64,000 nucleotides of DNA from Dictyostelium discoideum (Eukaryota). The notes beneath the pieces were generated by a model. It worked only from the letters and a program-made list of their open reading frames with translations, was not told the origin of the DNA and did no database searches. This document shows, in pieces, positions 7,076 through 57,510 of the stretch (positions are counted from its first letter, which is position 1; each line of letters starts with the position of its first letter). A program made the position numbers and the translations under genes. The stretch spans positions 3,584,001 to 3,648,000 of the forward strand of contig CM000150.2 in the NCBI GenBank assembly GCA_000004695.1. The letters are read 5' to 3'.

Positions 7076-7120
<45 letters not shown>

Positions 7121-13990: not shown

Positions 13991-14021
<31 letters not shown>

Positions 14022-14413: not shown

Positions 14414-14483
14414 TTTCTTAAGTCTAATGTTATAATGTTTCAATTTTTTAATGGTATAAAAAAAAATTGGGTGTGTTTTTGCG

Positions 14484-15414: not shown

Positions 15415-17250
15415 ATGGTAAAATTTAAAATAGTTGTATCATTTTTATTATTTATTTTATATTGTAATTGTTTCACATTTGGTAGTTACACATTTGATAC
15501 AAAAAATTGGTCAACAAATGGTACACTATCATCATGTGTTTTTTATGATTTTGTAAATAACGATTATTATGATTTAAGAGCTATTGTCATACCTGATCAT
15601 CAAGGTGCTTACAGAGCAAGTTTCACAGCTGAACTTTCTGGTGGAATTCAAACACCATATACAATATATTTTAATCCTTGTTTTAATGATCATATGTGTC
15701 CAGGTGGTCTTTCAGTAGGTTGTACTTTTATTGTACAAAATTCACAAAGAGTTCTTAATTCTGTTGGTTTACTTTCAGAATCTCATTTTGTTACATTTAG
15801 AACAGATGGTATTACTATTAAATATCAATCAGCTCTTTTACCATCAACAACATGTGCCTCTAATGGTAACCGTAGAACTATGATTTTAGTTATCACTTGT
15901 GATCCAAATGAACCATTTAAAGTTACAAGTACTTATAACAGAAGAGTGTTATGTGAACATACAATTTATATCGCTTCAAAATTAGTATGCAAAAATAGAG
16001 GAGTATTATTTAATCAAGGTCTATTTTATGATTTAACACCAATGAAATTGTAAGTTATTTAATTCTTTTTCATATTTATTTTTTTTTATTTTTTTTTTTT
16101 TAAAATAATTATCCAAAAATAAAAAAAAAAAAAAAAGGATCAAACACGAAATTTCAAAATAAAAAAATCTAATCTTTTTTCACTTTTTTTTATTTTTTTT
16201 TAATTTTTTTATTTTTATTTTTTTTTCCCACAGATTAACAAGCACTTCACACCAAATCACCAATGATGACCAAACAAAAGATATTCTCTTTAATTTATTC
16301 GGAAATGTAAATAGATGTGGTACTTTCGGTACATCAACATTAAGTTATCAATCATGTATTTTAACAGTTGCTAATAAAGCGATCGATTATAAACTAGATT
16401 CAAGATATGCAACATCACCAAAATCAGTTATGGTAGGATCTCTCAGTCAACCAAGAACAATTACATTTACAAATGATGGAATAACTATAATTTATAGTTC
16501 AACAACTGGTTTCACAGAATGCTCATCAAATGGTAACAAATATTCATCAAAGTATATTTTAATTTGTGATCCATTCACAGAATATTATGTAGATAAATTT
16601 ACATTAGAATCACAATGTATTTATCAAATTAAGGTTTATACTAAATACGCATGTCCAACATTACGTTTATTCAAAGAATCACAATATTATGACCTTTCAC
16701 CATTGATGTTGTAAGTATTCAATTTAATTAAAAAACCTTTTTAATGTTTTATTCTTGCACTTCTAACAATTATTAATAATAAAATAAATAATAGGGATTC
16801 AACAAGAAATTATACAACAGGTCATATTACAGGCGGATATGAATATAATATTGTATTCAATATTGGTAATAAAGCACAAATGTGTAGCGATGCATTTAAT
16901 GATTATTATTTTGCTTGTCAATATGACCCACGTTCTAAAAGTTTTATTCCACTTGCAAAGGCAAGTTTAGGTCAAAGAGTAACATTTGATTTAAATCAAG
17001 TTAAATTCGAATATACTTCACCAACAACAACTAGTTGCCCATTAAATTCCAATAAAAGAACTTTTATTATTGTTTTAAATTGTGATGAAAACCAACATTA
17101 TCAATTAGTTTCAACTTTAGAATCTCCTGTATGTGTATATACAGTAACAATTAAAACTAAATATGTATGTGAATCAACAATTTATTACAATAGAATTAAT
17201 ACTACCTTTTATGATATTACTCCAATAAAAACGTAAGTTTTAAATTAAAT

Positions 17251-17336
<86 letters not shown>

Positions 17337-20300
17337 CTTTATTAACAACCAAAACTATTAATTTTAATTAGAACGAAAGATAGTCCAAAAACTGTAGATA
17401 TTGTTGTTGGTGGATATCCATATAAAGTAAGGGATAATTTTTAAAATTTTTTTTTTTTTTGTTTTTTTTTTTTTAAACAAACATCAAACGTGTCAAACTG
17501 AAATTTAAATATTTTATGTATATATTTAAAAATATTTACTAACTTTACTTTATTAATTTTTTATAACAGCTTTATTACAGTATAGGTAATACTGTTAATT
17601 ATTGTGCAAATCAAGTGGAGTCAGTTCCAGGGGTTGATTATCAAGCTTGTCAATATCTCAGCGGTCTTGTTATTCAAGTCGGTAGTTTAAAAAATACATC
17701 AATGTATCTAAGTAATAATGGTATAAATATATATCATACTACACCATTTGATTTAACCAGAGTATGCCAAAATACAAGATATCAAAGAGTGAACTCTTTA
17801 AATATGGTATGTGATACAACAGCAATAAACGTTGTGGTTAGCGCGACTGAGACTGCCGATGATTGGGCATGTATATATACAATCGAAATTAAAACCAAAT
17901 ATGCATGTCCAATTAATTATGCACCAGTATTGCCAGCTGTTGGAAATCCATGTTTATACAGTTGTACACCACCAGGTGCTTTAAATACAAAAGATATAGT
18001 TAGTGTACTTTTAAATTTGGGCGTTTGTTTCTCAGAGATTAATAAATATGGTACAGGTGCACAATCATTACTTGGTATATTCAACAATACTTGGGTTTTA
18101 AACCACAATGGATATGATGATTGGATGGGTGGACAACTTTATTCACTATTATTAACAGGTAAACCACAAACATCGATTTCACCATATGTTATTTCAATTA
18201 CACATGATAATTTATGTACATATGGTACCAATGGGTTAAGTAAAGCAAAAAATTCAATCAATGATTTTCTTACTATTACAAATGATCTTCTTGAAATTTC
18301 AAATCGTGCAGCCAGTTCAACCGTTACCAAATATACATATTCAGATGGAGCAATAACATTATCAACACATAAACTTTTATCAACATCAACTGGAGGTCTT
18401 GCAATTATTAAATACAAAAATTTGCTATGCTACTATTCAATAGTTTCAAATTTACAAACTTTAGTTATTTCGAATTATTTGCTTTCATGTCCATATTATT
18501 CACCAACCATTACATTGTACAGTTTAACACCACCAACAGGGAAAATTGGAGATACTATCACAATTAATGGCCAAAATTTAGATACAAATAGATATGATGT
18601 TTATTTCAACATAATTGACGACAACAGTAAAGTCAAAGCAACAATAACATCAAGAACCGTAAATTCTGTAAAAGTAATTGTTCCAAATGGTTTTGGTAAT
18701 GCATTAGTCTACACTCAAAATATACTTAATCCAACTACCTCTGATAAACTTTCATTTTCATATCCATCACCAGCGATTGTCAAAGTAATTAGTCAACCAT
18801 TTAGTACAGATATCATCAATAGATTCTTTGTTATTGGTCAAAACCATCGTTCTTTAATAACCAATATCACCATTTATCCATACATCGATAATATTGAAAA
18901 AGAAGCAATTTATTGTGAAATTGAAAAGTATTGTCCAAGTTCATCAAAAATTCCATCAATTCCAGAATCAGCAGTAGGTCATCCATGTATTAATTCAACA
19001 GTTTACTCTGAGAATTCCCAGTTTTTCGATTATTCCAAGTATGATGTTTTTGTTTGTATCAAATCATCATTAGGTGTTGGAAGTGGTATCATTAAATTCC
19101 CATCACAAACATTTACATTTGCATACTCTTATAAAGCACCTCTCTTATATTATACACAACCTGGCATTCGTATTCCAACCGATGGTGGTAGTTTTCAATT
19201 GAGTGGTAAAAACTTTCCACCAACACAAGAAATCATTGATCTCGGTTTAAACACATCTGTAATCATTTGGAATAATGATAATTTTGTTACATTCAAAGGA
19301 ACAAATCTTACAAGCACCAATATCAATTGGAAGAGTTCTAAATCGATTTTATGTGTTGCACCACCAGGTTTCGGTGGACCATTCATCGTTACGGTAACTG
19401 TCGGTAAACAAGCGTCAAAAACTATATATCCAAGTGATTTAAATGAAAATCCAATAGATTATTATTTATATTATTCTCCACCAACTTTGCTCGACATATT
19501 AGCAGTTCCAACTGATGGTGGGGAAACTATAATAAAAGGTACAAATTTTATTCCAGTCTCGCTTGCAGATCAAATTAATAATCAATCATTAATTGGTTCA
19601 CCAAATTCAGTCACGTTTAATAATGTTTTATCTTCATCATGGAAATGGATTAACTCAACACATGTAAAAGCCATCGTACAAAAAGGTATTGGAGCAATCC
19701 TTACAATTGTAAATGTTGGAAGCCAAAGTACTGAAACGAGTCCATATCCCGTAATTTTTTATAAACAACCTGAATTAGATAATAAAAAATATGAAAACTT
19801 TGCAAATAGTAATATTTTAATAACTGGTTCTAATTTTGTACCAGTTGGTGTTTCAGCAGGTTCATCAAGTTCTGTCAAAATTGGAGGTATTCCTTGTAAC
19901 TCTGTAACATGGGTAGATTCAAAATCTGTTATTTGTAATGTACCAATTGGAACTGGTGATAATTTAAATATCCAAGTAACAGTTGGAGGTCAACAAACCG
20001 AATTAAATGATTATTTCTCATATTTAGGGCAATGCGATTTCCTCTGTAGCGATTTATCAAATTTAGTAAGTTTTTAAACATTTTAATTACAGAAAAAAAA
20101 AAAAAAACTAAAAAATACTAATTTTTTACATTATAATCTCAAAGGAATTAGAAAAAGTTATTAGAGAAAATAAAAAAGATTTAAAGAGTACTCTTTTATT
20201 AACAGGTGTATGTTTAGAACAAATCGAGCAATATAATCTCACATATATTAAAAATAAAATTGAATCAAGTTGGATTGGAAGTTCAATTATTAATGATTGG

Positions 20301-23300
20301 ACAAGTGGTAAATTCTATAATTATTTCAAATCATCAGAATCATACTCAACAGTTAAAACACTTGCAAAATATATTACTCCAAAGAATCCATGTATTTATG
20401 ATAATAAAAGAGTAAAGAATTCATTAGATTACCTTTTCGAAATCAATTCAGATATTTTCCATTTAATTGAACTTTCAATTTCATCAAAAATCAGTTATCC
20501 AGATTCACCATATGAAACTTATTTCTATGAATCATCAAGCAACCCAGAGTATGGTCTTTCAATTATTACATTTGATTCAGCAATTTGTAGCTTTACAGAA
20601 TCAACTATTCAAGACTACCAAAGTGGAAAAGTATTACAATCATGTTCAATCATTCCAATTATAAATCAAGTAATTAATCCAACAACAACACTTCAAGCAC
20701 CATATCAATATTCACTTACAATTATTGGTAGATTATTTGATAGTTCAACTAGAATATTTTTATCAGGTTATGAATGTCCAATCATTGGTAATATTATTAC
20801 AAATCAAAATGATTATATTCAAACTCTTAGTTGTTCAGTACCATCAGAAATCAAATCATACTCGGCCTCTCCAATTAGTTTTTACAATGGTTATAGTGAA
20901 AATAATATATATAATTTCTTGTTGGATTTTAAAAAATCATTCTTTTTTATATATCCAATTTCAACAGTAACTCAAATTCAATACCCATCAAGTGGTCCAA
21001 TTCAAATGAATTCTGAAATTAAAGTAATTGGTTTTAATTTCTTCCCATATGGTATTACAAATCCAAGCATTCAAGTTTTTATTGATGATCTTGAATTAAC
21101 AGGTACTATCTTTGGATTAACAAGCATAAATGGAGTTGATTCATTTTCATTTATTGCTTCTGGTTTAGGTTCTTTAAAGTATGTAAAAAAAAAAAAAAAA
21201 TTAAAAAAAAAATTAAATTATTAATATTTAAAATATATTTTTTTCAAAGTTACATTCAATTATTTTATAGTGATAGTTTACCAATGATTATAAACGATGA
21301 TATTAATTTAGAATTTTCATTTGAAAGACCAATTGTTAATAGTATATTACCAACAAATGGAGATTACAATACAAAGGTTACAATTAATGGTAATAATTTT
21401 AGAAAAGGTCAATCAGTAAAAATTGGAGACATATTAGTAAATGATATTGAATTCATTTCAAATCAAAAGATTATTGTTTCAGCACCATTTGGATTTATTA
21501 ATGGACTTGTAGTTGTTTATTCAGATGATCAATACAGTTTAGAAGAAATATCATTTAGTTATCCTTCACCAATTATAGACCAAGTCATTCTTTCAAATTA
21601 TGAATCAAAATTAAACACAACAGGTACAAATTATTTCACAGTAATAGGTAGAGGTTTAGGTACATACATTGCAGAACAAGTCGATATTATTATTAACCAA
21701 GAGTTTTATGCAAGTTGCGAATTCGATTTCTGTGAAAGTTTAGAAATTATTGAAGATATAGATATAAAAGATCAAGGAATTTGTCAATATTTAAAATATA
21801 AAAATTATCAATATATCGATGAAAACTTTGATATATTAAATTGTATTTTAGCTGATTCGATTGGTAAAGATAAATCAATCAGTATCAAAATTTCAGAATT
21901 CCAAAACCAAACTTTCACCTACTCTTATTATGAACCATGGATTGAAAAATTAACACAAAACTCTTCATCAGCAACAACTGATGGTGGTGAAGTTATCGTT
22001 ATAAATGGTTACAACTTTTTACCATTCGAAAATTTAAGTCCATACTATGAAAACAATGAAACTATTGCACAATGGTTAAATCAATCAGAAATATTAATTG
22101 GTGAAAGCTATCTTTGTCAATCAATTAATTGGACCAATTCCTATGAATTAAATTGTACAATCCCACCGGGAATTGGTGTTAATCATACAATCATTGTAAA
22201 AGTAGGCCTTCAATCATCAAATCATACTGATTATTTGTATTCTTACGATCCACCAAAACTTGATACAATCAATAATTCCACCAAAAATGAGACACATTAC
22301 TATTCTTCAACAGATGGTAACAATGAAATTATAATAACAGGTAATAACTTTATTCCAAAAGAGTTATCAGATCATTACAACCAGAATGAAAATAAAACTA
22401 TAAATTCAATACTATTAGGTAAACAATATTGTAATGAAACTATTTGGATTAATTCAACAATAGTTAAATGTAAACCATTAGCAGGTATTGGGTCAAATTA
22501 CAAAATAAACATTAAAGTTGGTAATCAAAATTCAAATGAAACCATTTACTTCTCATATGAGAAGCCAATTTTAGATTTAAAGAATTACACAGGTTCAACA
22601 AATGGTAATACTGAAATTACAATAACAGGTATCAACTTTATTCCAAAAGAATTAGCAGATAATAATAATTTCAATCAATCAGAGAACTATATAATGATTG
22701 GTGATAATAAATGTAATGAAACTATTTGGATCAATTCAACAACAGTTAAATGTAAACCAATATCAGGTACTGGTACCAATCATAGAGTTATCATAACAGT
22801 TGGTAATCAAAACTCAAATGAAACGGTCTACTTTTCATATGATAAACCAATTTTAGATATTAAAAACTATAGTAGTCCAACTGATGGCAATACTGAAATC
22901 ACAATTACAGGTGAAAACTTTATTGAAAATTATAATCAAGAAAAACATAATGAAAATGATAATTTCGTTAGAATCGGTGAAAATAAATGTAATGAAACAA
23001 AGTGGATAAATTCGACAACAATTAAATGTAAATTAATTCAAGGTATTGGTTTAGATTATAAAATAGTTGTAACAGTCGCCAATCAACAATCAAATGAAAA
23101 TGTTTTCTTTTCATATGAAAAACCAATGATTGATAGTAAAACACTATTAGCATCAACCAGTGGTAGTGAAACTATTAAAATTACAGGTACCAATTTCATT
23201 CCATCAACTTTAGTAGAACATTACAACAAAGAAGAAAATAAAGATAACTCAATAAATTCAGTTACTATCAATAACGAGTTTTGTAATGATATTACATGGA

Positions 23301-25732
23301 TTAACTCAACAGAACTAACATGTAAACCATTAGCAGGAGTTGGAACTAATCATACTATATTCATTTTGGTTGGAACTCAAAAATCAAATCAAGTAAAATC
23401 ATTCTCATATAAACCTCCAAAGATTGAAGAGTTTAAATACTACACAGCACCAACACATTCCAATAAAATTATTACTATAACTGGTGAAAACTTTATTCCA
23501 ATCGAATTATTATCAAAAGACAACAGCAATAGTTCAGTACTCATTGATAATATAAAATGTGAAGAAATCAAATGGATTGATTCTACAAAAGTTTCATGTC
23601 AAGTTCCAGTAGGTCAAGGTAAAGATTTATCGATTAAAGTTAAAATTGAAAATCAAGAAACTGAAGAAAATCAACAATTTTCATATGATAAACCATTTAT
23701 TCAATCAATCAATCCAAATAAAGGAAGATGTAATCAAGAAGTATTAATTACAATTCAAGGTGATAGTTTTGGAAAGAGTGATCAACTAATTAAAATTGGT
23801 AATAACGAATGTCAAGATATTCAATTCTATCCAAATCATACATTTACATGTAAAGTTCCAATCGTGGAGAATTCAATTAAATCCATTGTTTTATTAAATG
23901 TTGGAAATCAAGATTCAAACGATAACATTACATATAAATACTATGGACCACCAGAAATTAAAAGTATTGGTTTACCATCATATCTTTCATTCAAAGGTGA
24001 TGATTTAATAACAATCATTGGTAATAACTTTATAGAATATGATGATGGATCTGATGAAATTGTTGTTAAATTTAATAATGAACCAACAGCTATCATTGAA
24101 AAAACAGAAACATCTATTAAAATTAAAACTCTTAGTGGTGATGAATTTAATTTACCAATTGCTGTAGAATTAAATGGTCAAATAAGTAATATCGATACTT
24201 CATTCGTTTACTCAAATCCAATAATTGAAAGTGTAACACCATCATCAAGTAGCTCAAAATCAAATACTCATATCACCATTAAAGGACATAATCTTGGATA
24301 TTCAACAAACACTCCCAAAATTACAATTGGAAGTAGTAATTGTTTAAATATCAATACTATATCTCCAAATGAAGTTCGTTGTATAGTGTTGAAATCAAGC
24401 GCAGGCACTAAACAATTAACATTAACCTATGAAAGTTATCAACCAACCTATTCACAATTCACTCACAAAAACGATGATGACAGTGATAGCCACGATGATG
24501 ATGATGATAAAGACAATAATGGACCAAAAGATACCATAATAAGTATTATCGGAAGTGCAATTGGAGCAGCAGTATCAGCAGCCATAAGTGGACTAATAAC
24601 AAGCATTTTCATTGGTGGAACATCAGTAGCCACAGCAGCAGCAACAACAACAGCAACAGGTACCGCGATTGCAACAGCAACTACAGCGTCAACAGCAACA
24701 GCTATTGCCAGTGCAACGACCGAAGGTGTTGCAGTAGTCTTTACAAGGGTATCAGTAATAGCAGCAACAGCAGGTGGTGTTGTTATTACTGCAATTGTAA
24801 CAGCAACAGTCATCCTTATTTCAGGTGGAAGTACACCATCACCAACTCCAACTATAACTCCAACTATTTCACCAACTCCAACACCAACCGATAACTATTG
24901 GGTAAGATGTATGGTCGATTATTCAAGATTAACTTTACAAGTCGATAATCTTTACGGTCAAGATATAGTATGTATTGATGGTAATGGAATTTCATCAATT
25001 TTCAACGAATCATTCTCTTGTAAACCTGATCTTATTAACGATAGTATGATATGCACTCAACAACATCAAGATGGAACAAATTCAACAACCACATTTGGTA
25101 ATTCAACATTAATTTGTCATATTGACTCAACAAAATCATGTGAAATTTCACCACCATTCATTATACCATCCGATCCAATTGAAGATGATGAATATTCAAA
25201 TATTTTAGAATGTCAATATAATCTCATTGAAAATTCATTATCAACACACTCTAATAATAGTCCATTAAGATGTTATAATAATGAAACTGAAAATTACTTC
25301 ACTATGAATACTACACTTTCATGCTCAAAAGATGAATCATTAAGTCAAGATAACAATACGATTTCTTGTTTAGCAGATACAGATGATACTCAAATCTTTT
25401 TCTTTAAGAACTCAATTACATGCATTACAGATTATCCATACTATAAATGTACAATGAAATCTGAACCATCACAAGATGATAACATAATTCCAGAACCAAC
25501 ATTACCACCAACTCCATCAATTGATGATGATTCCACATGTATTTATGATTCAGCCAATCCATATTCAATAGATCTCCAACCAACGATTGGAACTAATGTC
25601 AAATGTCCAACAAATGAAAAAGAACTTCATTATGATCTTTCAACTTATCTAACATGCACAGATAATACCACCCATAAAAACTCCACTTATTCAGTTTCAT
25701 ATTCAACTTATGTTTGCATTAAAACAAAATAA
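15415..25732 (+). CDS. Giant secreted/membrane glycoprotein, copy B, about 3,200 aa: signal peptide, 4 P-type-lectin (MRH, CI-MPR-like) domains, at least 15 IPT/TIG repeats, Asp/His stretch, Ala/Thr/Gly hydrophobic region, Pro/Thr linker, Cys-rich C-terminal domain. Exons 15415..16049, 16234..16710, 16796..17232, 17372..17426, 17570..20065, 20145..21178, 21271..25732
   Basis: All seven exon junctions have GT..AG boundaries and the phases reconcile (2-2, 2-2, 2-2, 0, 0, 2). The ORF-track pieces 15397..16053, 16430..16714, 16880..17236, 17615..20077, 20919..21224 and 21284..25732 all join into one frame. Each lectin exon ends in YDL(T/S)P(M/L/I) and contains Cys pairs plus Y-x-(I/V)-x-(I/V)-x-T-K-Y-(A/V)-C. 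This resembles the CI-MPR repeat signatures (YDLSxL, FxWxTxxAC), from my recall. The motif IT(I/V)xGxNF(I/L) recurs as in IPT/TIG domains. NxS/T sites are abundant. Confidence 0.6.
17262..17337. repeat. (AAT)n microsatellite inside intron 3 of giant gene B
   Basis: Perfect trinucleotide run visible in the sequence. Confidence 0.9.
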
Positions 25733-26345
25733 AAACAATTAAAATAATTTTTAAAAAAAAATAAAAAATAAAATGAGATAATGGTTTTATCAATAATTTA
25801 ATTTGATACAAAATTCATTTTTAGTGTTTTTACATGTATAACATTTTAATTATTGTTTACTAATATTAATATTAATTATTCCTCTGAATATTTCTAATTA
25901 ATTTTAATTTTTTGAATAAAAAAACTAAATTAACCTTTTTGTAACATTCAAGAGGTCAAGTTATAGCTAACTATCCAATTAATACTTTATTAATAGTAAT
26001 AGTAAAGGTAAAAGAAAAATTAAAAATGAAATAGAAAAACTAGAAAAAGATAAACAGGATGAAATTAAAAATTAAAAAAATGATAAATTCAATGGTTTAA
26101 ATCAAAAAGAATAATTAGAAAATCTGGCTACAGTAATTCAATTATGGCAACCATCTTCATATTTTCAAGCTTCATTTTTTTATTTGATTAACCATTAAAA
26201 AATAATTAAATGTGAAAATAAATGTGATATTTATTTTAAAATAGAATTTTTTTTTTTTTATTTCTTAATGCACCATTTGGTTTTATCGAATTTTGAAAAC
26301 TAAAAAATTTTATTTTTGGAATTAGTTAAATTTTAAAAAATTAAA

Positions 26346-28888
26346 TTAAAATAAAATATATTTAATACTTACATCTTTGGTATATTCACCCAAAACTTTT
26401 CTAAACTCTTCAATGGAATCGATATTTTGTAGATCACCATGTTTATTTTCTGTTAAGAGAATACAATAGATAAGATGATCTTGGCAATCCGGATGATAAT
26501 TAATGATTTTTGAATCTGTATCACTTGGATAAGCTTTACATATTTTTTTATTAATTTCATTATAATCCTTATCATCATGACCTTCTTCGCTATCACTTTG
26601 ATCGCCTTCTTTTGGGAATTTAAATTTTTCTAAATCTTCTATATTGACTTCTTTCAATTGAATGATGTTTTCATTTTTTTTAAAATTCAATTTTTCATAG
26701 AGTTCTTTAACTGAATTCACAGTTTTTAAATCGATATATATCTTGTCTGGGAAAGGTGTGACTGTTGATGTTGGTACAACAATTGTATTTTCTGTTTCAT
26801 CTTTTACACTTTTATCTTTTTTTAAAGTAACTGTTAATGTTGATTCAACATAGATATCTTTATACAATTGGTAAGATTTGGACTTTTCAAAGCTACAAGT
26901 GACATCATTATCATCACATAAAATAATTTCCCCATTGATTGATGGAAACACATTGAAATCAAAAAACTCTGATTTGTATTTATTTGTTGTAGTTTGATCC
27001 TTAAGTTGGGTTAATAGTGGAATATAAACATTGTCATAACCATAATTATATTCATTTGAAAATAATTTATCTTCATCTTTTTCATTATTGTAAACGATAA
27101 TAAATGGATTCAAATGATAGTATTTTTCATCATCTCCATAACCTTTAACCTTGGTTTCAAAGTCTAGCTTTCTGTTACCTAAAATTTCTTTGAGACTATT
27201 TGGATATTTAGTTATTAATCCGTTTAAATTCAACTTTTGACCTGCAATGCTATTTAATCTTAATGATTCTTTTTTAAGATATTGATTATTCTCTGGGTGT
27301 CTAATTATACCAACTCTTCTGTAAAAGTATTCAGAAAGATATTTCATTTTATCACTACAAAAAGCACCACCTCCACGTGCCTCTTGCTTTCCTTGCCAAT
27401 TTAAATCACCAAAGCAAATAGTCCCACCACCGCCACCACTATCTACTTTATCTATATTATTGAATTGATAAGAAATTTTTGAATGGTCACTTCCTGAATC
27501 AGCACTAATAACTTTTGACCAAGGTGTTTCGAATCTGTAAGAAAGATAAATTGATTCAACTGCTTGAGAAATTGCATTTTCACCTTTTGTAATCTTTGTT
27601 TGAGTATGGACCATTGTTTTAAAATTATTACCATTTTTAAAATTATCTATATAATGCCAAATTATAAAAAATTTAATTTTTTCCTTGTGAGTTTCTTCAA
27701 TTTTTTCATTATACTTTTTATAAAGGTTTTTATTTGTTGTTTGAATGAAGTATCTCCCTTTATCACTTTCATAAATTTTATTATAGTGAACATTTGATTC
27801 AAGAGGATTTAGAGTCGGGTTTGATGATGTAATTTCTTGGTTTAGAATTAATTCTGCCTATTTTTTAAGAATATTAGTTTGGTAATTTAAAAACACAATT
27901 TTAAAAATATAAATTTCTTACCAATTGTGACCATTTATTTAAATAAATAACTCCGTTCCATATATCAGGTTCATTTCCAACAATAATATGGTCCTTCATT
28001 AGGTTATCCAATTCAATAAAAGTTTTGGGAGGTTCAATTTTACTATTAATTGTTTCCAAATTAATGACATTTTGGTTCTTACGGTCAAGCTCAGTTTTGA
28101 GGTATTCTGAATAAGAATTGGCTGATGATACCCTTTTTACCTTTTTAAAAACTGTATTAATGGTCCGAATATTTAAATTACTATAAATAATATACTTTGG
28201 AATAATATGAAGTTCTTCTTTTGACAAAGTTATACAAATTGAATGTTGAGCATGTTGATTATTTAAAGTATGTTTGTCGTAATTAAAAAGAGGTTCATAT
28301 CCTGTTTCTGGAGATCTTGGAACACTGTGAATTACATGAATTCCCCCATTTTCATTCCAAATGAAAAATCCTTTTGCATGTGCCTTTTTTTAGATAAATA
28401 AAAAAAATAAAAAAAAAATAAAAATATTAGAAAACTATTAACAACAAATAATAATCAAAAAAAAAAAAAAAAAAAAAAAAAAAGATAAAATAATTAACAC
28501 AAACACTATCATCACCATTACTGGGTTGATCATTATAAGACAAACTATTAAATAAAATAGCACCAGATTCATTTGGTATACTCTGTTTGTATGTTGATGT
28601 AATCGGGTTTGGTTTTGTTGTATTTGGATCTCTAATATTAAAATCAACTATTTCATTAATCTCTGAATTCATTTCTTTTAATGTGCTATCAGTATAAATA
28701 GCACCTTTACTGTGACTCAATTGCTCTAAAAACCACCATTCCACATTCTTTTCTTTAGAATCTCCATCTCCAAATACCTGACTATCCTTGTAAACATTTT
28801 TTGTTGTTTTACATTTTGGAGGATCACTACAATAAATCTGTGATATTATTACAAATAAATATAAAAATATTATATATCTATTTCTCAT
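26346..28888 (-). CDS. DNase II-family secreted protein, copy C; exons 28888..28505, 28383..27922, 27857..26346
   Basis: Same structure as copies A and B: MRNRYIIFLYLFVIISQIYC; AHAKGFFIWNENGGIHVIHSVP; DHSKISYQF...ICFGDLNWQGKQEARGGGAFC. Exon 2 is the most diverged and is 27 nt shorter than in B. The C-terminal extension is closely similar to B. Confidence 0.7.
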
Positions 28889-28944
28889 GTTATTATTTTT
28901 GTTTTATTTATTTTAATATAAAAAAAAAAAATTATTTATATATA

Positions 28945-32146: not shown

Positions 32147-35100
32147 ATGGTAAAATTTAAAATAGTGATATCATTTTTATTATTTATTATATATTGTAAT
32201 TGTTTCACATTTGGTAGCTACCCATTTGATACAAAAAATTGGTCAACAAATGGTACACTATCATCATGTGTTTTTTATGATTTTGTAAATAACGATTATT
32301 ATGATTTAAGTTCTATTATCATACCTGATCATCAAGGTTCTCATAGAGCAAGTTTTGATGCAGAACTTTCTGGTGGAATTCAAACATCTTATTTAATGTA
32401 TTTCAATCCTTGTTTTAATGATCATATGTGTCCAGGTGGTCTTTCAGTAGGTTGTATTGCTATTTTTCAAAATTCGCAAACAATATATAATTCTGTTGGT
32501 TCACTTTCAGAACCACATTTTGTTACATATAGAACAAACGGTATTACTATTAAATATCAATCAACTCTTTTACCATCAACAACATGTGCCTCTAATGGTA
32601 ACCGTAGAACTTTGATTTTAGTTATTACTTGTGATCCAATTCAACAATTTTCAGTAACAAGTACTAATAACAGAAGAGTATTATGTGAACATACAATTAA
32701 TATCGCTTCAAGACTAGTATGTAAAAATAAAGGAGTATTATTTAATCAAGGTCTATTTTATGATTTAACACCAATGAAATTGTAAGTTATTAAATTCTTT
32801 TTCATATTTTTAATTATCCATTTTTTTATTTTTATTTTTTATTTTTATTTTTATTTTTATTTCCCACTTTTTTCAATTCATTTTTTTTAATTTTTTTTTT
32901 TTTTTTTAATTTTTTTTTTTTCCAATAGATTAACAAGCACTTCACACCAAATCACCAATGATGACCAAACAAAAGATATTCTCTTTAATTTATTCGGAAA
33001 TGTAAATAGATGTGGTACTTTCGGTACATCAACATTAAGTTATCAATCATGTATTTTAACAGTTGCTAATAAAGCGATCATTATAAACTAGATTCAAGAT
33101 ATGCAACATCACCAAAATCAGTTATGGTAGGATCTCTCAGTCAACCAAGAACAATTACATTTACAAATGATGTAATAACTATACTTTATAGTTCAACAAC
33201 TGGTTTCACAGAATGCTCATTAAACGGTAACAAATATTCATCAAAGTATATTTTAATTTGTGATCCATTCACAGAATATTATGTAGATAAATTTACATTA
33301 GAATCACAATGTATTTATCAAATAAAAGTTTATACCAAATACGCATGTCCAACATTACGTTTATTCAAACGACAAATACAATATTATGACCTTTCACCAT
33401 TGATGTTGTAAGTATTAAATTTAGTTTTTTAATATTTTATTTATCGTGCCCCTCCTCTAAATAATTAACAATTCGGTAAATCTATATATATAGAGATTCA
33501 ACAAGAAATTATACTGCAAGTTATAGTACAGGAGAAATTATATTTAATATTGGTAATAGAGCACAAATTTGTAACGAACCCTTGAATGGTACAATTTTTC
33601 ATTTTGCTTGTCAATACGATCCAATCAATAGAGTATACAATCAAATCGCTCAAGCAAGTTTAGGTCAAAAGGTAACATATGATTTAAATCAAATTAAATT
33701 TGAATACTCTTCAAGACTAACAACTAGTTGCTCATCAAATTCCAATAAAAGAAATTTTATTATTGTTTTAAATTGTGACGAAAATCAACATTACCAATTG
33801 GTTTCAACTATTGAATCTCCTGCATGTGTATATACAGTAACAATTAAAACTAAATATGTATGCGAATCAACAATTTATTTTAATGCATTTAACTATACCT
33901 ATTATGATATTACTCCAATAAAAACGTAAGTTTAAAGTAATAATAACTAGGTAATAATAGTAAAAATAATATTGATTTTTATTAACAAACACAATATATC
34001 AAACTATTAATTTTAATTAGAACAAAAGATAGTCCAAAAACAGTGGATATCACTGTCAGTGGAGTCACAAATAGAGTAAGAATTTAACTTTTAAAAAAAA
34101 AAACTAAAACTAAAACTAACATATTTATTTATTATTTTTTTAAATAGCTTTATTATGGTATAGGTAATACTGTTAACTTTTGTACAAATCAAGCTACAGC
34201 AGTTCCTGGTGTAGATTATCAAGCTTGCCAATATATCAATGGTGTTGTTATTCATGTTGGTAGTTTAAAAAATACTTCTATATATATTGGTGATAGTAAT
34301 GATATATATATCGCTCATACATCAGTAACTGATTCAACTAGACCACCATGTAGAGGTAAATATCAAAGGGCTGACATTTTAAGTATGACATGTGATCCAA
34401 CGGCTACATACACTTTTGTCAGTGCCAAAGAGGTTTCTTCTAACGGGGGATGTCATTATTATATTTACATTAAAACCAAATATGCATGCCCAATTAATTA
34501 TGCACCAGTATTGCCAGCTGTTGGAAATCCATGTTTATACAGTTGTACACCACCAGGTGCTTTAAATACAAAAGATATAGTTAGTGTACTTTTAAATTTA
34601 GGCGTTTGTTTTTCAGAGATTAATAAATATGGTACAGGTGCTCAATCATTACTTGGTATATTCAACAATACTTGGGTTTTAAACCACAATGGATATGATG
34701 ATTGGATGGGTGGACAACTTTATTCACTATTATTAACAGGTAAACCACAAACATCGATTTCACCATATGTTATTTCAATTACACATGATAATTTATGTAC
34801 ATATGGTACCAATGGGTTAAGTAAAGCAAAAAATTCAATCAATGATTTTCTCACTATCACAAATGATCTTCTTGAAATTTCAAATCGTGCAGCCAGTTCA
34901 ACCGTTACCAAATATACATATTCAGATGGAGCAATTACATTATCAACACATAAACTTTTATCAACATCAACTGGAGGTCTTGCAATTATTATGTATAAAG
35001 GCTTGCTATGCCATTACTCAGTGGTTTCAAATATTCAAACTTTAGTTATTTCGAATTATTTGCTTTCATGTCCATATTATTCACTACCAATTACATTGTA

Positions 35101-38100
35101 TAGTTTAGCACCATCAACTGCGAAAATCGGAGATACTATTACAATTAATGGTGAAAATCTAGATAAAGACAACTATGATGTTTATTTTAAAATCATTCAA
35201 GATTCATATTCTGAAGTCAAAGCAACAATAACATCAAGAACAGCAAATACTGTAAAAGTAATCGTTCCAAAAGGTTTTGGTGGTGCCTTTGTTCTCACTC
35301 AAAATAGAATCAATAAGTTAATCTCTAATAATCTTGAATTTTCATACCCATCATCAACCATTGTCAAAGTAATTAGTCAACCATTTAGTACAGGTATCAT
35401 CAATAGATTCTTTGTCATTGGTGAATATTATCGTTCATTAATAACCAATATCACCATTTATCCATACATCGATAATATTGAAAAAGAAGCAATTTATTGT
35501 GAAATTGAAAAGTATTGTCCAAGTTCATCAAAAATTCCATCAATTCCAGGATCAGAAGTAGGTCATCCATGTATTGATTCAACAGTTTACTCTGAGAATG
35601 CCCAGTTTTTCAATTATTCCAAGTATGATGTTTTTGTTTGTATCAAATCATCATTAGGTGTTGGAAGTGGTATCATTAAATTCCCATCACAAACATTTAC
35701 ATTCGCATACTCTTATAAAGCACCTCTCTTATATTATGCACCACCTGGCGCTCGTATTCCAACTGATGGTGGTAGTTTTCAATTGAGTGGCAAAAACTTT
35801 CCACCAACACAAGAAATCATTGATCTCGGTTTGAACACATCTAAAATCATTTGGAATAATGATAATTTTGTTACATTCAAAGGAACAAATCTTACAAATA
35901 CCAACATCAATTGGAAGAGTTCAGATACGATTGTATTTATTGCGCCACCAGGTTTTGGTGAGTGGATCACCGTTTCAGTAACTGTCGGTAAACAAGCGTC
36001 AACAACTACATACCCAGGTGATTTAGATGAACGTCCAACTGGAAATTATACTTTGCATTATCTATTTCCAACAATTGTTGATTTATCAGCAGTTCCAACT
36101 GATGGTGGTGAAACTATAATAAAAGGTGCCAACTTTATTCCAGCTATCTTTGTAGGTCAAATTAATAATCAATCATTAATTGGTTCGCTACATTCAGTCA
36201 CGTTTAATAATGTTTTATCTCCATCATGGACATGGATTAACTCAACACACGTAAAAGCCATCGTACAAAAAGGTATTGGTACAATCTCTCCAATGGTAAG
36301 AGTTGGTGGTCAAAGATCAGATTTGTACCAACTTTTTGCAACATTATACAAAAAACCTGAATTAGATAATAAAAAATATGAAAACTTTGCAAATAGTAAT
36401 ATTTTAATAACTGGCTCTAATTTTGTACCAGTTGGTGTTTCAGCAGGTTCATCAAGTTCTGTTAAAATTGGAGGTATTCCTTGTAACTCTGTAACATGGG
36501 TAGATTCAAAATCTGTTATTTGTAATGTACCAATTGGAACTGGTGATAATTTAAATATCCAAGTAACAGTTGGAGATCAACAAACCGAATTAAATGATTA
36601 TTTCTCATATTTAGGGCAATGCGATTTCCTCTGTAGCGATTTATCAAATTTAGTAAGTTTTTAAACATTTTAATTACAGAGAAAAAAAGAAAAAAAAAAC
36701 TAAAAAATACTAATATATTATCATTTTTACCTCAAAGGAATTAGAAAAAGTTATTAGAGAGAATAAAAAAGATTTAAAGAGTACTCTTTTATTAACAGGC
36801 GTATGTTTAGAACAAATCAAGCAATATAATCTTACATATATTAAAAATAAAATTGAATCAAGTTGGATTGGAAATTCAATTATTAATGATTGGACAAGTG
36901 GTAAATTCTATAACTATTTCAAATCATCAGAATCATACTCAACAGTTAAAACACTTGCAAAATATATTACTCCAAAGAATCCATGTATTTATGATAATAA
37001 AAGAGTAAAGAATTCATTAGATTACCTTTTCGAAATCAATTCAGATATTTTCCATTTAATTGAACTTTCAATTTCATCAAAAATCAGTTATCCAGATTCG
37101 CCATATCAAACTTATTTCTATAAATCATCAAGTAACCCACAGTATGGTCTTTCAATTATTACATTTGATTCAGCAATTTGTAGCTTTACAGAATCAACTA
37201 TTCAAGACTACCAAAGTGGAAAAGTATTACAATCATGTTCAATCATTCCAATTATAAATCAAGTAATTAATCCAACAACAACACTTCAAGCACCATATCA
37301 ATATTCACTTACAATTATTGGTAGATTATTTGATAGTTCAACTAGAATATTTTTATCAGGTTATGAATGTCCAATCATTGGTAATATTGTTACAAATCAA
37401 AATGATTATATTCAAACTCTTAGTTGTTCAGTACCATCAGAAATCAAATCATACTCAGCCTCTCCAATTAGTTTTTACAATGGTTATAGTGAAAATAATA
37501 TATATAATTTCTTGTTGGATTTTAAAAAATCATTCTTTTTTATATATCCAATTTCAACAGTAACTCAAATTCAATACCCATCAAGTGGTCCAATTCAAAT
37601 GAATTCTGAAATTAAAGTAATTGGTTTTAATTTCTTCCCATATGGTATTACAAATCCAAACCTTAAAGTTTTTATTGATGATCTTGAATTAACTGATACT
37701 ATCTTTGGATTAACAAGCATAAATGGAGTTGATTCATTTTCATTTATTGCTTCTGGTTTAGGTTCTTTAAAGTATGTAAAAAAAAAAAAAATTAAAAAAA
37801 AAATTAAATTAAATTATTAATATATAAATTTCTTTTTAAAAGTTACATTCAATTATTTTATAGTAATAGTTTACCAATGATTATAAAAAATGGTGTTAAA
37901 TTAGAATTTTCATTTGAAAGACCAATTATTAATAGTATATTACCAACAAATGGAGATTACAATACAAAAGTTACAATTAATGGTAATAATTTTAGAAAAG
38001 GTCAATCAGTAAAAATTGGAGACTTATTAGTAAATGATATTGAATTCATTTCAAATCAAAAGATTATTGTTTCAGCACCATTTGGATTTATTAATGGACT

Positions 38101-41100
38101 TGTAGTTGTTTATTCAGATGATCAATACAGTTTAGAAGAAATATCATTTAGTTATCCTTCACCAATTATAGACCAAGTCATTCTTTCAAATTATGAATCA
38201 AAATTAAACACAACAGGTACAAATTATTTCACAGTAATAGGTAGAGGTTTAGGTACATACATTGCAGAACAAGTCGATATTATTATTAACCAAGAGTTTT
38301 ATGCAAGTTGCGAATTCGATTTCTGTGAAAGTTTAGAAATTATTGAAGATATAGATATAAAAGATCAAGGAATTTGTCAATATTTAAAATATAAAAATTA
38401 TCAATATATCAATGAAAACTTTGATATATTAAATTGTATTTTAGCTGATTCAATTGGTAAAGATAAATCAATCAGTATCAAAATTTCAGAATTCCAAAAC
38501 CAAACTTTCACCTACTCTTATTATGAACCATGGATTGAAAAACTAACACAAAACTCTTCATCAGCAACAACTGATGGTGGTGAAGTAATCGTTATAAATG
38601 GTTACAACTTTTTACCATTCGAAAATTTAAGTCCATACTATGAAAACAATGAAACTATTGCACAATGGTTAAATCAATCAGAAATATTAATTGGTGAAAG
38701 CTATCTTTGTCAATCAATTAATTGGACCAATTCCTATGAATTAAATTGTACAATCCCACCGGGAATTGGTGTTAATCATACAATCATTGTAAAAGTAGGC
38801 CTTCAATCATCAAATCATACTGATTATTTGTATTCTTACAATCCACCAAAACTTGATACAATCAATAATTCCACCAAAAATGAGACACATTACTATTCTT
38901 CAACAGATGGTAACAATGAAATTATAATAACAGGTAATAACTTTATTCCAAAAGAGTTATCAGATCATTACAACCAGAATGAAAATAAAACTATAAATTC
39001 AATACTATTAGGTAAACAATATTGTAATGAAACTATTTGGATTAATTCAACAATAGTTAAATGTAAACCATTAGCAGGTATTGGGTCAAATTACAAAATA
39101 ATCATTAAAGTTGGCAATCAAAATTCAAACGAAACCGTTTACTTCTCATATGAGAAGCCAATTTTAGATTTAAAGAATTACACAGGTTCAACAAATGGTA
39201 ATACTGAAATTACAATAACAGGTATCAACTTTATTCCAAAACAATTAGCAGATAATAATAATTTCAATCAATCAGAGAACTATATAATGATTGGTGATAA
39301 TAAATGTAATGGAATTATTTGGATCAATTCAAGAACAGTTAAATGTAAACCAATATCAGGTACTGGTACCAATCATAGAGTTATCATAACAGTTGGTAAT
39401 CAAAACTCAAATGAAACGGTCTACTTTTCATATGATAAACCAATTTTAGATATTAAAAACTATAGTAGTCCAACTGATGGCAATACTGAAATCACAATAA
39501 CAGGTGAAAACTTTATCCAAAACTATAATCAAGAAAAACATAATGAAAATGATAATTTCGTTAGAATCGGTGAAAATAAATGTAATGAAACAAAGTGGAT
39601 AAATTCGACAACAATTAAATGTAAAATAATTCAAGGTATTGGTTTAGATTATAAAATAGTTGTAACAGTCGCCAATCAACAATCAAATGAAAATGTTTTC
39701 TTTTCATATGAAAAACCAATGATTGACAGTAAAACACTATTAGCATCAACCAGTGGCAGTGAAACTATTAAAATTACAGGTACCAATTTCATTCCATCAA
39801 TTTTAGTAGAACATTACAACAATATAAAAAATAAAAATAACTCAATAAATTCAGTTACTATCAATAACGAGTTTTGTAATGATATTGCATGGATTAACTC
39901 AACAGAACTAACATGTAAACCATTAGCAGGAGTTGGAACTAATCATACCATATTCATTTTAGTTGGAACTCAAAAATCAAATCAAGTAAAATCATTCTCA
40001 TATAAACCTCCAAAGATTGAAGAGTTTAAATACTACACAGCACCAACACATTCCAATAAAATTATTACTATAACTGGTGAAAACTTTATTCCAATCGAAT
40101 TATTATCAAAAGACAACAGCAATAGTTCAGTACTTATTGATAATATAAAATGTGAAGAAATCAAATGGATTGATTCTACAAAAGTTTCATGTCAAGTTCC
40201 AGTAGGTCAAGGTAAAGATTTATCGATTAAAGTTAAAATTGAAAATCAAGAAACTGAAGAAAATCAACAATTTTCATATGATAAACCATTTATTCAATCA
40301 ATCAATCCAAATAAAGGAAGATGTAATCAAGAAGTATTAATTACAATTCAAGGTGATAGTTTTGGAAAGAGTGATCAACTAATTAAAATTGGTAATAACG
40401 AATGTCAAGATATTCAATTCTATCCAAATCATACATTTACATGTAAAGTTCCAATCGTGGAGAATTCAATTAAATCCATTGTTTTATTAAATGTTGGAAA
40501 TCAAGATTCAAACGATAACATTACATATAAATACTATGGACCACCAGAAATTAAAAGTATTGGTTTACCATCATATCTTTCATTCAAAGGTGATGATTTA
40601 ATAACAATCATTGGTAATAACTTTATAGAATATGATGATGGATCTGATGAAATTGTTGTTAAATTTAATAATGAACCAACAGCTATCATTGAAAAAACAG
40701 AAACATCTATTAAAATTAAAACTCTTAGTGGTGATGAATTTAATTTACCAATTGCTGTAGAATTAAATGGTCAAATAAGTAATATCGATACTTCATTCGT
40801 TTACTCAAATCCAATAATTGAAAGTGTAACACCATCATCAAGTAGCTCAAAATCAAATACTCATATCATCATTAAAGGACATAATCTTGGATACTTAACA
40901 AACACTCCCAAAATTACAATTGGAAGTAGCAATTGTTTAAATATCAATACTATATCTCCAAATGAAGTTCGTTGTATAGTGTTGAAATCAAGCGCAGGCG
41001 CCAAACAATTAACATTAACCTATAAAAGTTATCAACCAACCTATTCACAATTCACTCATGATGATGACAGTGATAGCCACGATGACAGTGGAAGCCATGA

Positions 41101-42352
41101 TCATAATGATCCTAATGGACCAAAAGATACTATAATAGGTATTATCGGAAGTGCAATTGGAGTATCAGTATCAGGAGTCTTGGCTGGATTAATACCAACT
41201 ATTTTCGGTAATGGAACATCAGTAGCCACTACGGCCGCAACAACAAGGGCGGTAGATACAGCGGTAGCGGCAGCAACTACAGCAGCAACAGCAACAGCCA
41301 TTGCCAGTGCAACGATCGAAGGTGTTGCTGTAGTCGTTACAAGGGTATCAGTAATAGCAGCAACAGCAGGTGGTGTTATCGTTACTGCAATTGTAACAGC
41401 AACAGCCATTCTTATTTCAGGTGGAAGTACACCATCACCAACCCCAACCATAACTCCAACCATAACTCCAACCATAACTCCAACTATTTCACCAACTCCA
41501 ACACCAACCGATAACTATTGGGTAAGATGTATGGTCGATTATTCAAGATTAGCTTTACAAGTCGATAATCTTTACGGTCAAGATATAGTATGTATTGATG
41601 GTAATGGAATTTCATCAATTTTCAACGAATCATTCTCTTGTAAACCTGATCTTATTAACGATGGTATGATATGTGCTCAACAACATCAAGATGGAACAAA
41701 TTCAACAACCACATTTGGTAATTCAACATTAATTTGTCATATTGACCCAACAAAATCATGTGAAATTTCACCACCATTCATCATACCATCCGATCCAATT
41801 GAAGATGATGAATATTCAAATATTTTAGAATGTCAATATAATCTCATTGAAAATTCATTATCAACACACTCTAATAATAGTCCATTAAGATGTTATAATA
41901 ATGAAACTGAAAATTACTTCATTATGAATACTACACTTTCATGCTCAAAAGATGAATCATTAAGTCAAGATAAAGATACGATTTCTTGTTTATCAGATAC
42001 AGATGATACTCAAATCTTTTTCTTTAAGAACTCAATTACATGCATTACAGATTATCCATACTATAAATGTACAATGAAATCTCAATCATCACCAGATGAT
42101 AACATAATTCCAGAACCAACATTACCACCAACTCCATCAATTGATGATGATTCCACATGTATTTATGATTCAGCCAATCCATATTCAATAGATCTCCAAC
42201 CAACAACTGGAACTAATGTCAAATGTCCAACAAATGAAAAAGAACTTCATTATGATCTTTCAACTTATCTAACATGCACGGATAATATCACCCATAAAAA
42301 CTCCACCTATTCAATTTCTTACTCAACTTATGTTTGTATTAAAACTAAATAA
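32147..42352 (+). CDS. Giant MRH-lectin/IPT-TIG glycoprotein, copy C; exons 32147..32781, 32929..33407, 33494..33925, 34021..34075, 34148..36652, 36738..37771, 37864..42352. Exon 2 carries a 1-bp deletion, so this copy may be a pseudogene or require exon skipping
   Basis: Same seven-exon structure and splice phases as copy B. Exon 2 lacks a G between 33079 and 33080 (gcgatcattat versus gcgatcgattat in copies A and B). This gives an in-frame TAG in the B-like frame, and ORF 33124..33411 is in the shifted frame. Exons 3 and 5 N-terminal lectin regions are diverged from B. Exons 6 and 7 are near-identical to B apart from a longer Pro/Thr linker (3 extra TPTI units) and a variant Asp/His stretch. 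Confidence 0.5.
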
Positions 42353-42489
42353 ATAAAATATAAATAAATATAATCTTTTATCATTAAACGTATGGAAGGA
42401 TCTTCCTTCCTTAAATTTCAATAAATTATTATTTTTTTTTTTTTTTTTTTTATGTTTAGATATTATTTATTTTATATATTTAATATTGT

Positions 42490-42695
42490 AATCTTTTACA
42501 TATAATGATTCAGATGCTGAACCAGTTTATTCCTCACCAGTGCATTTGCCGAATTGAGCAAGAGAGTTACACTTGGCACGATGTAAATAAACTTACGAGC
42601 AGCTTCAACGTTGGCAGATTCACCTTTCCAAGTGAAGGGTACGAACGTTGAATTCACCGTTCGTACCAATTGTTCAGAGGTGAGCAAATTTGGAA
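42490..42695. other. GC-rich roughly 200-bp island in AT-rich intergenic DNA with a perfect 10-bp hairpin; candidate ncRNA or relic gene fragment
   Basis: ggtacgaacg-ttgaattcac-cgttcgtacc at about 42631..42660 forms a 10-bp stem. The ORF-track minus-strand ORF 42496..42687 (63 aa) has non-Dictyostelium-like composition. No family recognised. Confidence 0.3.
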
Positions 42696-42796
42696 TTCAT
42701 TTTAAAAAAAAAGTATGTAGTATATCGGTGTAATACAAAATATTGGAGAATTAAAAAAAAGGAAAAAAAAAAAAATAATAGTAACAATAAAAAATG

Positions 42797-42831
<35 letters not shown>

Positions 42832-43245
42832 TTTTTTGATCATTTTTTATAACTTTTTTTTTTTTTCTTATTTTGTCTTCTTAATTTATTTTTCGTTTAT
42901 TTTTATGGTTAAATAATATGAAAAAAAAATAAAATATAAAAAATCGGGAAGTGAATAAAATGAAAATTCATTTCGCCAGTAAAAAGTTTTTTAAAAAAAA
43001 AGAAAAAAAAAAAATTTATATTAATTAACACAAAGCCTATTACTTTGATTTCTTGTTTATTTATTTGGTATCAATTTTTTTTTAAAGTCTTTACCTCTTA
43101 AAAAAATTTTATTTTTATTTTATTTTTTTTTTTTTTTTTTTTCATGTGGGTAATATTTCCATTTTTTTTTTTTTTTTTTTATTTTTATTATTTTTTCTTA
43201 ATTTTATGAAAAAAAAAAAATAAAGGCGCACATTCTCAACGTTTT

Positions 43246-57467: not shown

Positions 57468-57510
<43 letters not shown>

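Follow-up and report, generated by a model that had tools for sequence, protein, structure and literature searches.

Mosaic divergence of two tandem giant MRH-TIG genes in Dictyostelium discoideum and its probable origin in partial gene conversion

Chromosome 1 of Dictyostelium discoideum AX4 carries two tandem paralogues, which we call B (15415-25732) and C (32147-42352), and whose products of about 3200 aa combine MRH (P-type lectin) domains with a long series of IPT/TIG domains. Both lie in a stretch of 64,000 nucleotides (assembly GCA_000004695.1, contig CM000150.2, positions 3,584,001 to 3,648,000 of the forward strand), referred to here as the window, in whose numbering coordinates are given unless another locus is named. 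Here we show that B and C form a mosaic of divergent and nearly identical segments, that the copies with which each of them groups switch from one kind of segment to the other, that synonymous divergence between them is strongly heterogeneous along the gene, and that the same family has been homogenised independently in a sister lineage. Recurrent interlocus gene conversion very probably accounts for these observations, B and C having been partly homogenised by it while old B-type and C-type blocks survive under ordinary purifying selection.

Divergent and homogenised segments of copies B and C

Self-comparison of the window identifies three repeat units, each made up of a minus-strand DNase II-like gene and a plus-strand giant MRH-TIG gene. 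Copy B (15415..25732, plus strand) is intact and has 7 exons (15415-16049, 16234-16710, 16795-17232, 17372-17426, 17570-20065, 20145-21178 and 21271-25732) encoding 3198 aa. An exact look-up of the spliced protein showed it to be identical to AX4 EEU04149.1/XP_002649199.1, an 'IPT/TIG domain-containing protein', and this match validates the exon model together with the exon coordinates of a preliminary description of this DNA, which agree with it. A homologue search with exon 5 had returned 4 partial proteins and no full-length one, and full-length members of the family were reached through the look-up of spliced B. Copy C (32147..42352, plus strand) has the exon pattern of B, with splice sites and translation read for exons 32147-32781, 32929-33407, 33494-33925, 34021-34075, 34148-36652, 36738-37771 and 37864-42352, and encodes 3209 aa once a 1-bp deletion is repaired. 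The span to which the preliminary description had drawn attention as divergent (33494-36652) is exactly C exons 3 to 5, and the peptides quoted there are present as written.

The two copies were compared with genes of other isolates, whose assemblies are probably the Nanopore and Illumina genomes of a project covering AX2-214 and diverged 'discoideum-clade' isolates (PMC12745789); the locus-tag and accession series point to this source, and to AX2-214 as the AX2-like assembly among them. Cx (locus L001) follows a 684-aa open reading frame (ORF), as C does, and has a C-type 5' part. Cz, from D. cf. discoideum (L005), has 3203 aa, and an aldolase gene and RNase H2B lie directly downstream of it. 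By comes from another D. cf. discoideum isolate (L007) and has 3206 aa; a DNase II gene and a homologue of the 684-aa ORF come after it, which places it at the position of B, and Ay is the copy upstream of it in that locus. Counts of informative sites are written below with the pair that agrees, as in B=By.

A plot of B-C identity in a 200-nt sliding window is clearly non-uniform and alternates between 65% and 100%. Following the plus strand of C, exon 1 and intron 1 (32,150-32,930) are 81-93% identical in nucleotides to B. Exon 1 itself (32147..32781), encoding the signal peptide and MRH1, is moderately variable at 88-92%, with a synonymous divergence (dS) of 0.135 and counts of B=By 49 vs B=C 16. 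Exon 2 (32929..33407), which encodes MRH2, is a homogenised island (95-100% in nucleotides, 98% in amino acids, dS 0.051, B=C 11, B=By 7). The main variable block (33408..34500; 61-90%) then takes in intron 2, exon 3 with MRH3, mainly its N-terminal half, intron 3, exon 4, intron 4 and MRH4. Its informative sites number B=By 181 vs B=C 20 when rows are summed, and C and Cx are 95-99% identical in it; this block holds ancient B-type and C-type heads. At the protein level the four modules of B and C share 81% (MRH1), 98% (MRH2), 73% (MRH3) and 62% (MRH4) of their residues.

Within exon 5 the alternation continues. A second island (34501..34940), the Cys-containing region after MRH4, is 97-100% identical with no nonsynonymous divergence (dN 0; B=C 13, B=By 3). 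It gives way to variable block 2 (34941..35395), in the region of the first IPT/TIG domain, at 76-92%, dS 0.30 and dN/dS 0.52, where the counts are C=Cz 54 vs B=C 20 and B=By 60 vs B=C 12. A partly homogenised island (35396..35800) is 93-98% identical to B, and variable block 3 (35801..36440), again in TIG domains, returns to 74-91% with dS 0.27 and dN/dS 0.60 (C=Cz 77 vs B=C 35; B=By 72 vs B=C 17).

Continuous homogeneity begins about 210 bp ahead of the end of exon 5. The homogenised 3' tract (36441..40980), made up of the end of exon 5, exon 6 and most of exon 7 with its TIG repeats, is 93-100% and mostly 97-100% identical, with dS of 0.026-0.035, and contains the longest perfect B-C run, of 733 bp (40136-40868). 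It is interrupted by a type-specific block of 440 bp (40981..41420; 78-94%) encoding an acidic Asp/His stretch and a membrane hairpin of two hydrophobic segments with an Ala/Thr-rich linker; this block has indels of 6 and 9 nt at the Asp/His stretch and counts of B=By 44 vs B=C 6. The C-terminal part (41421..42352), a Pro/Thr linker and a Cys-rich domain of no known family, is again homogenised (97-99%), with a 24-nt repeat-number indel between B and C in the linker at about 41440. The introns follow their surroundings: introns 5 and 6 are 92-96% identical, and introns 2-4, at about 77-82%, are as divergent as the adjoining exons. Intron 3 of B (17250-17337) is filled by a long (ATA)n microsatellite that intron 3 of C does not have.

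The preliminary description had proposed a B/C mosaic with diversified lectin exons and a homogenised 3' 6 kb. Its homogenised 3' part is confirmed, at 97-100% over most of C 36,400-42,350, but near-identity does not run unbroken from mid exon 5, as had been stated; two further variable blocks lie there in the TIG domains (34,941-35,395 and 35,801-36,440). The strong divergence reported for the N-terminal half of exon 3 and for MRH4 is borne out, with 65-83% nucleotide identity in the N-terminal half of MRH3, introns 3 and 4, exon 4 and MRH4; diversification of the lectin exons thus applies to MRH3 and MRH4, but not to the homogenised exon 2. Both exceptions named for the 3' part, the Pro/Thr linker and the Asp/His stretch, do carry indels, but the second extends to the whole 440-bp hairpin block.

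Grouping of the copies and synonymous divergence

In the variable blocks B and By are 89-98% identical, C is 87-99% identical to Cx and to Cz, and B and C share only 61-89%. In the 3' part the order is reversed, with 97-100% between B and C and about 91-98% for both B-By and C-Cz. Informative sites behave likewise: the variable blocks have B=By 347, B=C 62 and C=By 69, the 3' part has B=By 51, B=C 176 and C=By 40, and the two patterns differ strongly (chi2=242, p=3e-53). When Cz is the third sequence, B=C sites of the 3' part number 217, as against 32 for C=Cz and 39 for B=Cz. Copy B therefore groups with By in the variable blocks, and with C in the 3' part and in small islands (exon 2; 34,501-34,940). 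That paralogues are closer to each other than to their orthologues in the 3' part, together with this switch in topology, upholds the suggestion of the preliminary description that gene conversion acts across the repeat array.

Other copies add to this picture. In exon 7 of isolate ACTFIY, whose two local copies are By and Ay, the counts are By=Ay 100, By=B 24 and Ay=B 37, a grouping of By with Ay which indicates that homogenisation there was independent of the AX4 lineage. The contig of the window carries a second array at a distance of 1.1 Mb, with at least three more copies (D, E and F). Copy D takes part in the exchange: in the 3' part it shares 95-100% of its sequence with B and C, and D=C sites number 182 vs C=Cz 86. 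In some patches B matches D or the remaining copy of the window, A, and not C, which argues for several tracts and several donors.

Synonymous differences between B and C, counted in 100-codon bins, are very unevenly spread (chi2=224, 32 degrees of freedom, p=1e-30), and dS is about 10-fold heterogeneous, at 0.47-0.63 as against 0.03-0.06. It reaches 0.47 in the N-terminal half of MRH3 (dN/dS 0.48) and 0.63 in exon 4 and MRH4 (dN/dS 0.45, 95% bootstrap interval 0.25-0.71), and is 0.05-0.07 in the homogenised islands and 0.048 in the whole 3' part (dN/dS 0.41, 0.30-0.60). Silent sites and introns are thus raised along with the protein in the variable blocks, which means that these blocks are old and not merely fast at the protein level. 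The preliminary description had pointed to a comparison of dN/dS between lectin and TIG parts; in it the variable blocks have 0.45-0.60 and the 3' part 0.41; their confidence intervals overlap, and there is no difference between the parts. The most variable sub-blocks have values of 0.5-0.73 and none exceeds 1.

Orthologues behave quite evenly in a comparison that uses one sequence per lineage and so measures between-lineage divergence rather than within-population diversity. Between B and By, dS is about 0.10 (0.07-0.155 along the gene) and dN/dS is 0.27 in MRH1-4 and 0.32 in the rest. Between C and Cx, dS is again about 0.10, with dN/dS of 0.24 over MRH1-4, and between C and Cz, dS is 0.12-0.23, with dN/dS of about 0.2-0.3 except in the low-complexity hairpin block. 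Within MRH4 the orthologue dN/dS is 0.24-0.31, and overall orthologue values are 0.24-0.50. Flanking single-copy genes have dS of 0.075-0.19 in the same lineage pairs, as against 0.10-0.15 for orthologues of the family, and this agreement indicates that the MRH-TIG family diverges at the background rate.

Lectin modules and the weighing of explanations

The B and C products begin with a signal peptide, four MRH/P-type lectin domains and about 20 IPT/TIG domains, followed by the acidic Asp/His stretch; at the C-terminal end, two hydrophobic segments joined by an Ala/Thr-rich linker form the hairpin, and a Pro/Thr linker leads to a Cys-rich tail. Judged by sequence, both would be secreted or membrane proteins. 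Pfam PRKCSH_1 matches module 3 above the gathering cutoff, and modules 1, 2 and 4 fall below Pfam thresholds when run alone. A single-sequence search of PDB with the MRH1-4 region gave nothing meaningful and a profile of the modules was needed instead; built from all four, it retrieved CI-MPR (E=2e-11), ERLEC1 (2e-5) and the MRH domain of glucosidase II beta (0.03). An AlphaFold2 model of C MRH4 has a predicted local distance difference test (pLDDT) score of 81.5 and a predicted template modelling (pTM) score of 0.79. The top 48 Foldseek matches of this model against PDB all have the MRH/P-type lectin fold; domains of CD-MPR and CI-MPR (IGF2R) head the list, which also includes OS-9, Yos9, XTP3-B and Elapor1 (best E=4e-7, template modelling score 0.6).

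Four residues, Gln, Arg, Glu and Tyr, which we take from CI-MPR and OS-9 to be the mannose-binding set of MRH lectins, are aligned in modules 3 and 4, in B-type and C-type alike. In the same alignment module 2 is without Gln and Arg, and module 1 without Gln, Glu and Tyr. Modules 3 and 4 are candidate sugar-binding domains. Pfam TIG (PF01833) is found in 10 stretches of exon 7 (E=1.7e-112) and in exon 5 (E=4.7e-25), and Pfam gave no match for the C-terminal Cys-rich domain, the N-terminal part of exon 6 or the region after MRH4. Four consecutive TIG repeats of exon 7 form an internal tandem array with a period of about 280 bp and 65-78% identity between units, arranged alike in B (22306-23516) and C (38899-40109).

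Under the explanation that we favour, recurrent conversion, non-reciprocal exchange would repeatedly overwrite the 3' ~6 kb and three islands of about 400 bp in the 5' half from other copies. Five blocks would be spared, namely MRH1 (partly), the stretch from the N-terminal half of MRH3 through MRH4, the two TIG-domain blocks of exon 5, and the membrane hairpin. They would be several-fold older than the divergence of AX4 from the D. cf. discoideum isolates, and would persist as position-specific B-type and C-type sequences, each under purifying selection. Selection may keep the heads distinct; alternatively, mismatch of more than 15-35% may block heteroduplex extension, a self-reinforcing effect that needs no selection. 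It is also possible, although we consider it rather unlikely, that the heads (MRH3-MRH4, the first TIG domains and a matching hairpin) are distinct ligand-specificity cassettes kept apart by selection on a stalk that conversion keeps uniform, an arrangement resembling the 'variable head, constant body' of protocadherins; such heads may read, for example, glycans on prey bacteria, the extracellular matrix or other amoebae. That the same islands have been spared over several species-split ages, and that the sugar-binding residues are kept in both types, is consistent with the cassettes but is no proof of them.

The preliminary description had favoured diversifying pressure on the ligand-binding lectin modules, as in a recognition locus, such that positive selection speeds their amino-acid divergence. 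MRH3 and MRH4 are indeed the most divergent coding segments and in the alignment the sole modules with the canonical Gln/Arg/Glu/Tyr set, their segments vary among copies A, B, C, E and F, the C-terminal part of MRH4 has a dN/dS of 0.64-0.73 that is not significantly below 1, and B and F differ in MRH4 by 25.5 nonsynonymous vs 4.5 synonymous differences. Yet dS and intron divergence rise in the same blocks as dN, B-C dN/dS never exceeds 1 or departs from that of the 3' part, and orthologues of each type are conserved by purifying selection, even in MRH4, with dS equal to that of flanking genes. The variable blocks also include TIG domains and the membrane hairpin, which are not lectins, and within MRH4 the predicted loops hold no excess of B-C differences (27/68 loop vs 31/85 strand and helix positions). 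The B-F value (dN/dS 1.57 in MRH4) was rejected as a sign of positive selection; its excess is traced to a single cluster of complex changes, about 90 bp long, together with exon 4 of F, and not to scattered substitutions. Positive selection is therefore an improbable cause of the pattern. Nor do the available data support a recognition locus, with orthologue dS at the level of its flanks and a copy C that is frameshifted in AX4/AX2 and missing in one sister isolate.

A single recent structural event, either an unequal crossover or a partial duplication, could have joined a B-type or C-type 5' part to a common 3' part with no ongoing conversion. This would suit the one long 3' tract of about 6 kb at 97-100%, which stops at the limit of homology just past the stop codon, but it leaves unexplained how old and young sequence alternate at least 5 times in 4.3 kb of the 5' half, the different ages inside the 3' tract (733 bp identical vs windows at 95%), the patches that D or A shares with only one of the two local copies, and the parallel, independent homogenisation in ACTFIY; we regard it as unlikely. 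That the 3' part is merely under stronger purifying selection or a lower mutation rate is suggested by the 93-100% identity among all copies examined, but is scarcely credible when synonymous divergence of paralogues is about 10-fold lower there while orthologue dS is uniform over the whole gene (0.07-0.155), and when paralogues group within a genome in the 3' part. Collapsed or mis-polished repeats might be feared in genes that are long, A+T-rich, internally repetitive and arranged in tandem. An assembly artefact is nevertheless highly improbable: the independent assembly, probably of AX2-214, agrees over 22 kb, the B product is identical in both, and the leftover B-C differences are scattered as real copies would show. 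In that assembly (JBTAPE010000039.1 of GCA_054883475.1), window bases 1-21338 are matched at 99.8% identity, and 19525-41579 (22 kb, including all of the 5' 9.4 kb of C) is the same except for one 3-nt homopolymer indel.

Several points weigh against recurrent conversion as set out here. A single unequal crossover making a chimeric gene could account for the one long 3' tract. Conversion was read from identity windows and informative-site counts, and one sequence per copy per lineage limits the assignment of tract boundaries and donors. By, Cz and Cx are taken as positional orthologues from the synteny of loci that span 6-30 kb, and dN/dS comes from Nei-Gojobori counts with Jukes-Cantor correction, which are approximate in a genome of 75% A+T. 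On balance we infer that the exchange was conversion in many tracts, not one crossover.

Copy C, neighbouring elements and known systems

The deletion in exon 2 of C (33079..33080, plus strand) is evident where C reads GCGATC^ATTATAAAC and B reads GCGATCGATTATAAAC; one G is lost after 33079 and the frame is shifted, and C is otherwise open for 3209 codons. The independent AX2-like assembly (L004) shares this deletion; the isolate with P0004 has an intact site. The AX2-like assembly annotates C as a 3195-aa product despite the deletion, so that its gene model must skip the lesion. Genes at the end of the array vary in presence and absence: one sister isolate has no C-type gene at the syntenic site (L007 26537-30437, against window 42353-43740), and the homologue of the 684-aa ORF there abuts an aldolase gene. 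Copy C, frameshifted in AX4/AX2, missing there and intact in another isolate, looks dispensable. AX4 is without an aldolase paralogue which, in the sister isolates and D. citrinum, separates the C orthologue from RNase H2B. The syntenic site of D. citrinum holds no MRH-TIG/DNase II array and hence gives no date for the two types.

Copy A (about 5169-11484) has decayed to a pseudogene: it carries several frameshifts, and 3.1 kb corresponding to B 20915-24023 are deleted. Elsewhere it is annotated as two proteins (P0002 and P0003), and it keeps short patches nearly identical to B, for example at 99% in the N-terminal half of MRH3. In the second array, copy F is DDB_G0270480, an 'MRH domain-containing protein', whose knockout was scored as wild type in a dedifferentiation screen (PMC7190356). 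Copy F has clustered complex substitutions in exon 4 and the N-terminal part of MRH4 (L003 about 21115-21500, equivalent to B 17372-17670), and there the conserved Gln of an 'ACQY' motif is exchanged to give 'ACSI'. Micro-conversion by a donor not seen here, or a complex mutation, could have produced this patch. In the literature on the MRH domain in Dictyostelium and on DDB_G0270480 we found no paper on the function of the MRH-TIG family.

The DNase II-like gene is transcribed divergently from the MRH-TIG gene in every repeat unit. That of the B unit lies at 11643-14420 (minus strand) and that of the C unit at 26175-28895 (minus strand; three ORF segments, 26346..28888). They are only about 87% identical, so that homogenisation stops short of them. 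A search for homologues of the DNase II-like gene gave two matches, one of which led to a third chromosomal site (L006), a lone fragment at 93-94% identity with no MRH-TIG gene. Between the DNase II-like gene and C, in the C unit only, lies the A+T-rich 684-aa ORF (29525-31579, plus strand), which serves as a marker of synteny. It has no Pfam match and is kept in three other isolates with dS of 0.075-0.098 and dN/dS of 0.24-0.32.

The RNase H2B gene adjoining the array is DDB_G0270966, and exact look-ups of the AX4 RNase H2B protein and of two flanking FNIP genes returned no record. Further along, a non-long-terminal-repeat (non-LTR) retrotransposon (55054-59904, minus strand; ORFs for a reverse transcriptase and an APE-type endonuclease, G+C up to 41%) is separated by about 280 bp from the 3' side of a tRNA-Thr(AGT) gene (60185-60256, minus strand). 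This position fits the tRNA-targeted TRE elements of Dictyostelium.

Copies B and C are a fresh example of an already known phenomenon, partial gene conversion. The case is clean and well controlled, and it brings partial concerted evolution to light in a social amoeba, among giant MRH-TIG surface proteins whose family is uncharacterised. High divergence of a 'binding' domain beside near-identity need not imply adaptive diversification, and here it reflects old sequence next to freshly converted sequence. For annotation it matters that C is frameshifted in laboratory strains, and trees of MRH-TIG paralogues are unreliable unless partitioned. Should the glycans bound by the two head types differ, environmental or cell-cell glycan recognition in Dictyostelium would gain a candidate in this family.

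Human RHD/RHCE and the vertebrate protocadherin clusters have undergone partial concerted evolution in which blocks escape conversion (Innan 2003; Noonan et al. 2004; reviewed in PMC3966226). As in those systems, B and C are tandem paralogues in which part of the coding sequence is homogenised and the trees of the two parts disagree, and RH exon 7 and most protocadherin ectodomains stay distinct as the variable blocks of B and C do. For RHD/RHCE and the protocadherins the escaping part has been argued to be protected by selection (PMC3966226), whereas dN/dS lends no such support in B and C. The present case further differs in its family (MRH and IPT/TIG), in its organism, and in having several escaping islands that include non-lectin domains.

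In Dictyostelium itself the closest parallel is the allorecognition locus tgrB1/tgrC1 (PMC12745789), whose genes likewise encode large IPT/TIG surface proteins and are local duplicates reshuffled by recombination; their dN/dS is raised but below 1 (PMC12745789), and is below 1 in B and C also. The two differ in architecture, as tgr proteins have TIG domains and a single transmembrane segment without MRH domains, and B and C are 3200 aa long, with four MRH domains and a hydrophobic hairpin of two segments. Turnover between strains is extreme at the tgrBC locus, whereas orthologues of B and C diverge at the background rate.

Among lectins, each module of B and C resembles CD-MPR, CI-MPR, OS-9, ERLEC1/XTP3-B and glucosidase II beta in its MRH fold and Cys pattern, and modules 3 and 4, the candidate binding domains, have in the alignment the Gln/Arg/Glu/Tyr positions that bind mannose in the MPRs and OS-9. 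The tandem arrangement of MRH domains recalls CI-MPR. Unlike known MRH lectins, these proteins have four MRH domains fused to an IPT/TIG stalk of about 2000 aa and a hydrophobic hairpin, and two of the four, modules 1 and 2, are without the binding residues.

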